Position numbers and translations under genes: made by a program | The notes under the pieces: model-generated | Told to the model about the DNA's origin: nothing | The model's database searches: none | What the model saw: only the letters and a program-made list of their open reading frames with translations | Shown: one piece after another, positions 50,733 to 53,740 of the stretch | How the letters are laid out: every line of letters starts with the position of its first letter | How positions within the stretch are numbered: position 1 is the first letter of the stretch | Source of the DNA: Saccostrea echinata | Taxonomy: Eukaryota | Direction of reading: 5' to 3' | Assembly (NCBI RefSeq): GCF_033153115.1 | Contig: NW_026889779.1 | Location: 10,850,001-10,914,000, forward strand | DNA length: 64,000 nucleotides

Positions 50733-50832
50733 AACAGGTAGTGATGATGAAAGACTTCTCTCCATTCGCGGTTTCCACCAGAGATTTTTCAATGATGGAC
50801 CAATCCTTCCTTGGATGTCTGAACTACCTGTT
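50733..50832 (+). ncRNA. SNORD14: U14 snoRNA copy 1
   Basis: 9-bp stem AACAGGTAG/CTACCTGTT; C GTGATGA; domain A CATTCGCGGTTTC followed by CACCAG; domain B TTCCTTGGATGT + D CTGA (18S Cm462 human/Cm414 yeast). Confidence 0.97.
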
Positions 50833-51004
50833 TAAAACGAAGTTCAATTACATTGTCTCTTGTTTGAATAAACTATGTGACAATTGATATTATGCACATA
50901 TATTGCAGTTCATTTACAATGTCCTGAATGGAAAATGATTCAAAACTGTTGACTTGTACACATATATTAAAAAGATAAGGAAAAATTTTACATTTAGGAA
51001 GACC

Positions 51005-51807
51005 TAGCTCCAATAACGTAGCCCTCTCTGATTTTTTTTTTTTTTTTTTTTTTTTTTTGGGAGAGGGCTACAACTCCTTAGGATCTTTATAATGGTGCAA
51101 GTGCGGGAGTGATTCACTACCGCACAGATTTCGGCTCAAATTATCAGTAAGTGGTTATTTTATTAACATATCTTACCTGAACTCATAAAAGTAGTTATAT
51201 GCAAGACATGAATTGATCCAAAAATATACAGAACAATCCGTATATCAGTTATTTTTCGTGTATGTCAACATCACAACTTGAATTTATCCGCCATGTTTAC
51301 TGACCCTGATCGATTTTATTTTGGAACAACCAATGAGAAATTAGGATTTAGGGGAGTGGATCGTTTAGGATTTCCCTCATTTTAAGCATAAATATCACTG
51401 TTTATGAAAAAAAATATCACATGGGATGCTTTTATATATCGATGTTTAGTGATATCGTACAACACAAACATTTATCAGCACCGACATTACTTTATCAAGT
51501 GCTTCTAAAATCCAAGCGCAAGTCTCTGTACATCACGCAAGAACTGTCATGGCTGCTGAGGAGAACGACTGGTAAATACGCAGATCTATTTTACTTAGTT
51601 TTCGCTTATAAAGGGCTACGATGTTGATTGTGAATAAAAATTCCGTCTTATTGGAAGTAAGTTGAATGCAAAAACAATTCATTTTGCCTGCAGTCGCCCG
51701 TATCTAAAAAATATATTTGCACCATTACGGAAATGTAGTGGAATTGTAGCCCTCTCCTGAAAATATCAGATTAAAAAAAATCGGAGAGGGCTACATTATT
51801 GCAGCAA
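51005..51807. mobile_element. Non-autonomous TIR element with 9-bp TSD (Mutator- or AcademH-like)
   Basis: AGGAAGACC|TAGCTCCAATAACGTAGCCCTCTC...GAGAGGGCTACATTATTGCAGCAA|AGGAAGACC; each TIR holds an internal GTAGCCCTCTC/GAGAGGGCTAC hairpin. Confidence 0.8.
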
Positions 51808-51867
51808 AGGAAGACCAAGATCACTGTTGACTAAAATTTATAAATGGCTTTATGATGGATCAAGTTC

Positions 51868-52183
51868 CAGGGGCTGACAAATACATTTTTTAGGCACTTG
51901 TCCAAGGGCAAGTGCACGTTCAAAATTCACTTGCCCCACCAGAATATTTGCTTGCCTCACTATAAACTATTACCATATTTATATGTATTTCAAAAAAAAA
52001 ATGGAAGACAAATACTGAGAAGATCATGCAAGCCTCTGTGCCAAGCCTTAAATCTATGACTTACATTGGGATTTTTTTCTTTCAAGTGACCTGCCCATGG
52101 GCAAGTGGTTGATAAAATTTCACTTGCCCACCCTTAAAATTCACTAGCCCCGGGCGTCGGGCAATGGGATTTGTCAACCCCTG
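51868..52183. mobile_element. hAT-like MITE with 5-bp TSD
   Basis: AGTTC|CAGGGGCTGACAAAT...ATTTGTCAACCCCTG|AGTTC; same GGGCAAGT/ACTTGCCC motifs as 30180-30912. Confidence 0.85.
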
Positions 52184-52451
52184 AGTTCAGGTTTATCAGG
52201 TTTATGATCTATATACATTGCAGTGTCTGCAAAACATTTTAACAAAATATTGTACTCCATTAAAACCAAGTGTTTCATGGTTATGTTGGTTTGATAGATA
52301 ATCCAAGTGTTTAACAACATCCTGATCTTTTATACTGTAATATTTTCAGACTATGCTGAAGTTACCATCTTTGGTCAGTTTGGTCATGAGTGTCCAATGG
52401 TGTTGGAAAAAAATGTGGTAAGAATATTTTACATAGCTGGAAATTTTTTAT

Positions 52452-52527
52452 CAGTTGTCAAAAGGATGAAAGCTTTACAACATGCTGATTTGTGATGTTT
52501 GTAATATTAGCTCTATCTGATTGGCTG
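52452..52527 (+). ncRNA. SNORD44: Box C/D snoRNA, U44 homolog
   Basis: C AGGATGA 52463; D' CTGA 52485; C' GTGATGT; D CTGA 52517 with guide TATTAGCTCTA (18S UAGAGCUAAUA, D+5 = human Am166); lies in intron 52418-52596. Confidence 0.88.
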
Positions 52528-52707
52528 CAATGTAGTACTGTCTGAATAAGTGAACTCTTTATTATGGTTAATTTATTGTATGTTGTGTACTTGTAGGAAA
52601 AGAAGAAAGAAATCGTTCAACCTATAACTTAAGTCAGAAGGTAATTACTTGATTAGTTACAGAGCATGAGAATTATTACTTGATGCCAATAAAATGGTTA
52701 AGATAAG

Positions 52708-52803
52708 CAGGTAGTGATGATGAAAGATTCTTCTCCATTCGCGGTTTCCACCAGAGATTTTTCGATGATGGACCAATCCTTCCTTGGATGTCTGAACTAC
52801 CTG
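52708..52803 (+). ncRNA. SNORD14: U14 snoRNA copy 2
   Basis: Stem CAGGTAG/CTACCTG; boxes C/D and domains A and B identical to copy 1. Confidence 0.97.
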
Positions 52804-53242
52804 ATTTTAAAAGCAAATCGGATTTTTTTTGCTAGATATTACTTATTATATGCAGTACAGAAATGGTCAATAAATGAGTCTAGATATTATACTTTCATTG
52901 TCGGTGTTGCCTGCCATTAATCAAATACCTATATTCAAACTTGTAGATGAAAAATTCTGATTAGTTCTGGTTTAAAAACAAGTGAGGAATATGGCATTTA
53001 AAGGGAGGTGTCACAAATCCCTCCCAAATTAACCTTCTCGTGTTTTAAAAGGGGAGGGGCATCCTGAAAACTGCCAGTTGCTTAATGCAGAAGCACTGTA
53101 ATGTATGGGGGGGCCTTGGGGTGTTAATTGCAAAAGTATAAATTTCTGCTGATTGTTATAAGATCTTTCATTCCCTGAAAACAATTTTAGTCCAATAAAT
53201 TCCTCATTACTGTTCCATTTGATCTGGAATTTGTTATTCAAG

Positions 53243-53316
53243 AACTGAATGATGAAAAATCTTGTGGGAATCTCTCTGACAAGAAGTGAAGAGATCATTA
53301 CAAGTATCTGACAGTT
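53243..53316 (+). ncRNA. SNORD79: Box C/D snoRNA, U79 homolog
   Basis: Stem AACTG/CAGTT; C ATGATGA 53249; D' CTGA 53276 with guide GTGGGAATCTC (LSU GAGAUUCCCAC; human Am3809); C' GTGAAGA; D CTGA 53308. Confidence 0.92.
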
Positions 53317-53648
53317 TAAAAACTTCCATGTATGATAATCAGATGTCCTAGTTCTCTTTTAATTATCAAGTTGTGTGTATTGCAGATTTTGGACAGAATA
53401 ATGTGCAAACTAAACAAATGCTGAAGGTTCGTATCTGCTCGATTTTTTACTTAGAGGTAAGAATTTTTGTTTTATTTATCTGTAGACATGAAAGGCAAAG
53501 AAAACCCAACACAAATTCATGAAACTTCAAAACTATGATTACAATTGAAATCAAGATCATGTAAACTATCAAACATTTTTATTCCTTCGTATGTCAAGCG
53601 GTCTAAAGCTGGTACTATAAAGTTGATTAAAATGAAAAAAGCTTGTAT

Positions 53649-53740
53649 GGCAGTGATGATGAAAGATTTTTCTCCATTCGCGGTTTCCACCAGAGATTCG
53701 TCGGTGATGGACCAATCCTTCCTTGGATGTCTGAGCTGCC
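53649..53740 (+). ncRNA. SNORD14: U14 snoRNA copy 3
   Basis: Stem GGCAG/CTGCC; same boxes and domains A/B; different terminal stem and central spacer. Confidence 0.97.

Follow-up and report, generated by a model that had tools for sequence, protein, structure and literature searches.

A GAS5-like non-coding host gene with three U14 snoRNA copies beside BiP in the oyster Saccostrea echinata

The stretch of DNA analysed here (the window) comprises 64,000 nt of Saccostrea echinata (contig NW_026889779.1, positions 10,850,001 to 10,914,000 of the forward strand) and contains three copies of U14, a small nucleolar RNA (snoRNA) of the box C/D class. They belong to a spliced gene with short exons (the host), located head-to-head with the gene encoding the Hsp70-family protein BiP (HSPA5). 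U14 is described as a snoRNA processed from introns, which pairs with pre-18S ribosomal RNA (rRNA) for its maturation and guides 18S methylation (PMC7277114). Four other guests of the host are guides of types found in vertebrate GAS5, in the same order, and the host is likely the oyster orthologue of this gene. The positions of the features are collected in Table 1.

All three U14 copies match Rfam family RF00016 (U14/SNORD14), which has a gathering score of 64: copies 1 and 2 are at or above it and copy 3 is just below. They show the same box C (ATGATGA) and box D (CTGA), and no difference in domain A (CATTCGCGGTTTC) or domain B, so that the three intact copies with identical domains described in the initial annotation are all present. 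Between copies, the C-to-D core is 96, 92 and 95% identical, and the 60-nt flanks are 49-60% identical, against a random baseline with a mean of 49% and a 95th percentile of 56%. Neither the boxes nor the domains contain any of the core differences, as would be expected from selection on each copy, which had been proposed, or from conversion limited to the core. The terminal stems had been described as different; this holds for copy 3, while the 8-bp stem of copy 1 (CAGGTAGT/ACTACCTG) recurs in copy 2. The copy 3 stem, read by hand, has 6 bp (GGCAGT/GCTGCC) and differs from the other by one two-sided change, one G:U and the loss of two outer pairs. With the rRNA of the same genome (ribosomal DNA (rDNA) unit L150, on which 18S, 5.8S and 28S were located), domain A forms 14 Watson-Crick pairs at 18S nt 82-95 and domain B forms 14 at nt 415-428, where its fifth nucleotide points to C419. 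In the table of PMC3511168, the 18S Cm guided by U14 domain B is C462 in human and C414 in yeast. The Rfam U14 consensus has an A in domain A; the window copies have instead a G, matched by a C in the 18S, which reads GAAACCGCGAAUG at this site. Since 57 of the 57 rDNA matches listed read GAAACCGCGAATG, as had been predicted from the domain, the pair is G:C and not G:U. A Drosophila U14 primer in the supplement of PMC4430873 (GCGGTTTCC in domain A) carries the same G, so the oyster variant is not special. Judged by their sequence, the window copies are genuine, intact U14 genes.

The joints of the host come from contigs of runs X1 and X3, which belong to two studies, derive from relatives of this genome and have an RNA status that is the guess of the tool. 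These contigs skip three GT..AG introns (49083>50394, 50463>52350 and 52417>52597), which points to a spliced gene, and by these joints exons 1 to 3 have 68-71 nt each. The intron at 50464-52349, also GT..AG, holds U14 copy 1. The earlier proposal of separate introns is thus borne out for this copy, and copies 2 and 3 lie in predicted introns. Introns 1 to 3 contain one C/D snoRNA each (U80-type, U14 and U44-type, respectively), and the later introns are predicted. In the 560-nt mRNA built from joined and predicted exons, the longest ATG frame has 31 amino acids. The host is therefore a spliced, short-exon non-coding gene, with the exons beyond the fourth predicted, and, as the initial annotation stated, the host of the window copies is neither hsc70 nor RPS13, the latter being the second vertebrate U14 host.

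Intron 2 is enlarged to 1.9 kb by repeat insertions at 51007-51805 and 51868-52181. U14 copy 1 is about 1.5 kb from the acceptor used, and a closer AG at about 50909 is a possible alternative acceptor. Intron 1 shows, on the + strand, a C/D-like unit (49843-49937) with CAGG/CCTG ends, degenerate boxes and no convincing rRNA target or family, and an additional exon is possible near 49971-50023. A spliced transcript on the - strand (55089-57549; joints 56191/56308 and 56376/56992) converges on the 3' end of the host, and antisense overlap between both is possible. Its longest ATG frame has 51 amino acids over three joined pieces; a 7252-nt X3 contig passes a further joint at 55089, and the gene may be longer, with this transcript as its 5' part.

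Besides U14, the host contains guides of the U80, U44, U79 and U81 types. The U80-type guide is predicted to target both A1064 and G1155 of 28S, in the numbering of this genome; their spacing of 91 nt equals that of the chicken U80 targets A1469 and G1560 in the table of PMC2653536. The U44-type guide points to 18S A161; the same table gives A165 for chicken U44, and the counterpart site in Neurospora is Am161 (PMC2780460). The C box plus guide of the U79-type snoRNA, used as a pattern, has a single match genome-wide, and the U81-type snoRNA contains 18 nt (54999-55016) identical to the human SNORD81 oligonucleotide printed in PMC10743478. The C/D snoRNA at 54395-54454 matches no Rfam family and gives weak generic hits alone; going by its guide, 28S C2157 is possibly an invertebrate-specific modification site. 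Two further C/D candidates, at 53902 and 54218, were rejected for want of a convincing guide or family, and a U74-like word is located at 60960, outside the host. The chicken gas5-like gene (mRNA CR387333) is given in PMC2653536 with U74, U75, U76, U80 (twice), U44, U78, U79, U47 and U81, in introns 1, 2, 3, 4/5, 7, 8, 9, 11 and 12, respectively. The oyster host shares with it four types with equivalent targets, and their order (U80, U44, U79, U81) is that of chicken introns 4/5, 7, 9 and 12; four randomly ordered items have this order in 1 of 24 cases. As in the host, vertebrate GAS5 and the chicken gene are non-coding, with short exons and one C/D snoRNA per intron, a likeness that extends in the oyster over introns 1 to 3 (PMC2653536). 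These four guides in gas5 order, missed by the initial annotation, are the more telling feature of the locus.

Table 1. Features of the host locus, the BiP gene and the hsc70 U14 copy. Positions are those of the window unless a contig is given.
Feature	Position	Strand	Evidence and remarks
BiP/HSPA5	44817..48581	-	ATG 47483; six coding exons; KDEL; spliced joints including 47485/48396
BiP non-coding first exon	48396 to at least 48581	-	Contig joints
ERSE-like (endoplasmic reticulum stress element-like) motif CCAAT-N9-ACACG	48520..48538	- (BiP strand)	Motif scan; one mismatch to consensus
Head-to-head gap BiP/host	48582..49014		Contig ends 48581 (-) and 49013 (+); about 430 nt at most
GCGCATGC	48990	host side	Motif scan; sole copy in window; presumably to be labelled NRF1
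E-box CACGTG	49009	host side	Motif scan; 1 of 4 in window
Host exon 1	49013..49083	+	5' end is contig end; joint to exon 2 in X1 and X3
U80-type (snR60/U80) double-guide C/D snoRNA	50231..50312	+	Intron 1; Rfam RF00309, 57.9 bits, above gathering score 41
Host exon 2	50394..50463	+	Joints on both sides; relative X6 also joins exons 2 and 3
U14 copy 1	50736..50830	+	Intron 2; Rfam SNORD14 match 50739-50826, 64.3 bits
Repeat insertion, probably MITE-like (miniature inverted-repeat transposable element)	51007..51805		Intron 2; inverted ends of about 94 nt, 72% alike; many diverged contigs on it
Host exon 3	52350..52417	+	Joints on both sides
U44-type C/D snoRNA	52456..52526	+	Intron 3; 11-nt guide to 18S A161; weak Rfam snoZ102_R77, E 1.1
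Host exon 4	52597..52640	+	Acceptor by joint; donor GTAATT predicted; contig reads through donor
U14 copy 2	52709..52803	+	Predicted intron 4; Rfam SNORD14 match 52712-52799, 64.0 bits
Host exon 5 (predicted)	52947..52981	+	Splice motifs TAG/GTGAGG
U79-type C/D snoRNA	53243..53316	+	11-nt guide to 28S A2660; Rfam SNORD79, 41.4 bits, E 2.7e-4, below gathering score 47
Host exon 6 (predicted)	53386..53456	+	Splice motifs CAG/GTAAGA
U14 copy 3	53648..53740	+	Predicted intron 6; Rfam match 53648-53738, 62.6 bits, E 8.5e-12; different terminal stem
Host exons 7 and 8 (predicted)	54001-54048, 54176-54189	+	Splice motifs
Weak C/D candidate	54093-54145	+	Between predicted exons 7 and 8; candidate target 28S U2204, several pairs being G:U; no Rfam family
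C/D snoRNA	54395..54454	+	Canonical C, D' and D boxes; 10-nt guide to 28S C2157
Host exon 9 (predicted)	54638..54776	+	Splice motifs TAG/GTATGT
U81-type C/D snoRNA	54982..55052	+	13-nt guide to 28S A394; Rfam SNORD81, 28.7 bits, E 0.05
Fourth U14	G000:C1:32254926-32255021 (L004:1498-1593)	-	Last intron of cytosolic hsc70; 67.8 bits

Mapping of U14 over the whole genome, set beforehand as a check by the initial annotation, gives four copies, on which DNA, Rfam and exact-pattern searches agree: three are in the window and the fourth is in hsc70 (with 105 of 17317 candidates scored, the Rfam search could have overlooked diverged copies). This hsc70 gene is intact, encodes a cytosolic protein of 659 amino acids and ends in EEVD; a vertebrate-type host is thus still used in the oyster. 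Its U14 shows the same domains A and B as the window copies and an 8-bp stem, and no further U14 was found in 30 kb in and around the gene. The oyster RPL7A (L166:6098-9694, + strand) contains U24- and U36-type guides, of which U36 is a known vertebrate RPL7A guest; U24 is an RPL7A guest in the chicken table of PMC2653536. No U14 was found in the oyster RPL7A, and U14 residence in RPS13 or RPL7A was rejected, all four copies being elsewhere by the three genome searches, although the RPS13 gene itself was not retrieved. In chicken, U14 copies are listed in hsc70 introns 5, 6 and 8 (PMC2653536), and mammals have three copies in hsc70/HSPA8 (PMC7277114). The oyster window copies resemble these in being intron-encoded, in their number of three, and in having domains A and B without the yeast Y-domain. 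Unlike in vertebrates, most oyster copies are in a non-coding host, and hsc70 has just one copy, located in its last intron. The window copies are only 80-82% identical to the hsc70 copy and cluster apart from it (FastTree support 0.82), which makes them an old, locally triplicated set and does away with the notion of recent strays of the hsc70 copy. That they are non-functional strays is scarcely credible: copy 3 is below the Rfam gathering score and mature U14 from this locus is a prediction, but three of the four genomic copies are here, in a spliced host, with cores 92-96% alike between near-random flanks and with boxes and both 14-nt 18S pairings intact.

The Hsp70-family gene beside the three copies encodes BiP, and the copies adjoin it but lie outside it on the opposite strand, as had been noted. 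Its joined exons give an open frame with a signal peptide and a C-terminal KDEL, the best PDB hits are BiP, and the protein is 100% identical to the one named BiP of Saccostrea echinata. The gap in Table 1 is bounded by contig ends, which do not fix the true transcription start of either gene. The initial annotation had proposed that U14 has a different host here and yet remained tied to an Hsp70 locus through the BiP promoter, either by ancestral linkage or by convergence; U14 would then have left hsc70, and the host would be driven by this promoter and co-regulated through it. The narrow gap would agree with this, as would the ERSE-like and CCAAT motifs at 48520-48570, less than 500 nt from host exon 1, and the residence of vertebrate U14 in hsc70 (PMC7277114; PMC2653536). 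Such a tie is nonetheless improbable: BiP is the endoplasmic reticulum paralogue and not the vertebrate U14 host, the oyster hsc70 keeps a U14 copy, so that a replacement link is unneeded, and the host has its own E-box (CACGTG) and GCGCATGC motif. The E-boxes of fly Uhg1, 2 and 5 are bound by Myc, as are those of most vertebrate SNHG promoters (PMC4430873), so a promoter of the host's own would be the simpler reading of these motifs.

Hosts of U14 in other organisms bear on the same point. A metagenome scan with a pattern of domains A and B gave at least 144 stretches, corresponding to 129 loci; the flanks are long in 65 of them and about 300 nt in the other 64. Among the matches listed, Hsp70 exons were hit at two of the 129 loci (L098 and L099), in both cases cytosolic hsc70 with U14 in an intron, and BiP at none. 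A tblastn search for BiP or other window genes beside the metagenome U14 clusters gave no hit, the flanks being probably too short for a decision. As a test of BiP adjacency this is weak, with about 300 nt of flank at 64 of the 129 listed loci and a longest stretch upstream of the first guest of about 2.8 kb (L059), against 2748 nt from the oyster first guest to the BiP ATG. Many U14 hosts are not Hsp70 genes, and the hsc70 copy offers a simpler explanation of the link of U14 to Hsp70. BiP does lie head-to-head with the host, but for U14 this is likely incidental; an old adjacency, if it is one, would likely be a link between BiP and the GAS5 locus rather than between U14 and Hsp70.

The non-Hsp70 hosts in the metagenome loci are diverse. 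In L025 (1691-4916, - strand), RPL7A hosts five U14 copies in one intron, plus U36 and two U80-type guides. In L036 (1900-3960, - strand), RPL7A shows U14, a U80-type guide and a snoRNA bearing U36-like and U81-type guides, and a MED22 gene is located divergently upstream, which presumably makes a surfeit-like pair with RPL7A. In L136 (277-380, + strand), U14 is located within an RPL5 intron (Pfam Ribosomal_L5e), and in L050 (4342-4981, - strand) and L077 a bicarbonate transporter gene (SLC4) has two copies, duplicated with their flanks, in a single intron. Twenty long loci show a GC content of at least 0.49, and the open reading frames of several look fungal by eye. Non-coding U14 hosts are also described: fly snoRNA:U14:30Ea is in Uhg2 (PMC4430873 supplement), and cluster V of Neurospora crassa contains CD16 and CD37/U14 in a UHG-like host (PMC2780460). 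Uhg2 resembles the oyster host as a non-coding, E-box-bearing U14 host of a protostome; of its guests, U14 and Me18S-A1576 are named in PMC4430873. The Neurospora cluster shares an intronic U14 and a non-coding host with the oyster, but it is fungal and its partner is CD16 and not a GAS5 guide (PMC2780460).

A U79-type guide is on the U14 strand in eight of the 65 long loci among the matches listed (L024, L027, L054, L059, L069, L071, L074 and L081). Rfam searches on 10 chosen loci gave SNORD24/U76-type matches of up to 51.4 bits, SNORD74 at 27.3 and SNORD47 at up to 40.3, the last below its gathering score. The overall guest order is U76, U74, U79, several U14 and U47, and L081 also has U14 before U79. 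In the 45 AT-richer long loci, 33 guides to GAS5 sites are on the U14 strand and four on the opposite strand, against four and four in the 20 GC-richer ones; the U76 and U47 positions used in this count were read from those metagenome loci. Among 132 frames, most of them belonging to the longest 150 of 270, Pfam found no coding exon flanking the GAS5-like loci. For the SLC4 exon of L050, a related locus, the named proteins that match best are from Lingula (80%) and bivalves (74-76%), so the GAS5-like metagenome lineage is likely a lophotrochozoan other than an oyster. The presence of U14 in a GAS5-type cluster of a second lineage hints at an old invertebrate GAS5 that carried U14. Its guests other than U79 and U14 are types absent from the oyster host, a difference compatible with, though no proof of, differential loss from an ancestral GAS5 with a fuller set.

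The host could instead be an oyster- or mollusc-specific non-coding gene, built by snoRNA mobility and similar to GAS5 in content only. Free movement of snoRNAs between hosts of broad expression is reported (PMC3511168), U14 is found in introns of hsc70, RPL7A, RPL5 and SLC4, and U80- and U81-type guides are found in RPL7A. Moreover, five gas5 guide types are missing, the guest directed to 28S C2157 is unassigned, and non-coding exons cannot be aligned across phyla, the homology of such hosts being hard to establish (PMC2655684). Against such an origin are the four guides in gas5 order, the second lineage that pairs a GAS5-type set with U14, and the neighbours of the host (MAN1B1-like, eIF3g and BiP), the human orthologues of which are presumably in regions paralogous to 1q25, the location of GAS5; a mollusc-specific origin is accordingly considered rather unlikely.

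Several points weigh against orthology with GAS5 and are set out together here. Of the nine guest types of the chicken set, four are present in the oyster host, so it is classed as GAS5-like and as a likely orthologue rather than a proven member. U74, U76 and U47 guides are absent from it, and the U75 and U78 regions give chance-level hits. Elsewhere in the genome, Rfam hits for U74, U47 and U76 are at chance level, with no pattern match, which does not establish their absence. In favour of orthology, the host has guides to four of seven GAS5 sites, against at most one in each of 30 control tiles (seven of which have one), but this control is partly circular, as four of the seven sites were taken from the host itself and U76 and U47 from metagenome loci. 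No joint surrounds U14 copies 2 or 3, where the contigs are unspliced (52596-52920 in X1 and X3; 53489-53914 in X5). At the 5' end, short pyrimidine runs are found near 48996 and no clear 5' terminal oligopyrimidine (5'TOP) start was seen at the contig end, which cannot fix the start. GAS5 is further characterised by accumulation in growth arrest and by a glucocorticoid-receptor decoy in its last exon; the 3' exon of the oyster host was not located. In the tree, those of the eight U79 and U14 loci that were included fall on one side of a split (support 0.996), so they are probably one related lineage and a single independent case, and this lineage and the oyster host share U79 and U14 only. 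Since U80-type (L025, L036) and U81-type (L036) guides also reside in RPL7A, the co-residence of GAS5 guests could be convergent. Unlike GAS5, the oyster host shows three interleaved U14 copies, one unassigned guest and a head-to-head position with BiP; U74, U75, U76, U78 and U47 were not found in it, and at the contig end neither a 5'TOP nor a TATA is clear.

The neighbourhood offers a further lead. In a row with BiP, positions 1-44500 of the window contain an endoplasmic reticulum mannosidase I gene (MAN1B1-like), an eIF3g exon and a C10-family gene. An intronless B-box/NHL TRIM-like open reading frame is found at 20598-22337, and the window end (63180-63800) contains dispersed repeats (…ttctcaagaa… and …gtagtgtagattcaag…). 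Human BiP, MAN1B1 and EIF3G are presumably located at 9q33, 9q34 and 19p13, respectively, and GAS5 at 1q25. Taken with the 1q/9q/19p paralogy that PMC2211742 shows in its rows for PBX and LHX, these positions would agree with BiP and GAS5 being old neighbours independently of U14, and are offered as a lead only.

On balance, the reading that best fits the locus, and one held as likely, is that the host is the oyster GAS5 orthologue, that U14 moved into it and was then triplicated, and that BiP is incidental. Under this reading, RNA polymerase II would produce a precursor, likely from the host's own E-box promoter, and, by analogy with vertebrate hosts, splicing would free one C/D snoRNA per intron, leaving a spliced exon product that is likely disposable. 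U14 domain A, on 18S nt 82-95, would act in early pre-18S processing, and domain B, on nt 415-428, would direct 2'-O-methylation of C419. The remaining guests would methylate 18S A161 and 28S A394, A1064, G1155, C2157 and A2660, and hsc70 would provide the fourth U14. The capture of U14 by a GAS5-like host would have preceded its triplication. A wider proposal is more tentative, and the balance is against it: GAS5 may be an ancient bilaterian non-coding gene, which in the lophotrochozoan ancestor hosted U14, as it would still do in the oyster and in the second, lophotrochozoan-like lineage, and which was located beside BiP, in the linkage group behind human 1q25/9q33. If so, intronic guides would trace one long non-coding RNA locus across the protostome-deuterostome split without exon similarity.

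The presence of U14 in non-coding hosts (fly and Neurospora) and the general mobility of snoRNAs among hosts are already known. Searches of open-licence full texts gave neither a mollusc GAS5 nor a case of U14 hosted by GAS5, although genome annotations, snoRNA databases or supplements may list such genes; in PMC8468332, GAS5 appears in the reference list only. In the oyster, an essential processing snoRNA is naturally divided between two hosts of one genome, with three copies in an E-box-bearing non-coding host and one in hsc70, which makes the 'constrained drift' model of host switching presented in PMC3511168 testable. If the orthology holds, GAS5, studied almost only in vertebrates, would extend to molluscs, and ordered intronic guides could date a non-coding gene without recognisable exon similarity.

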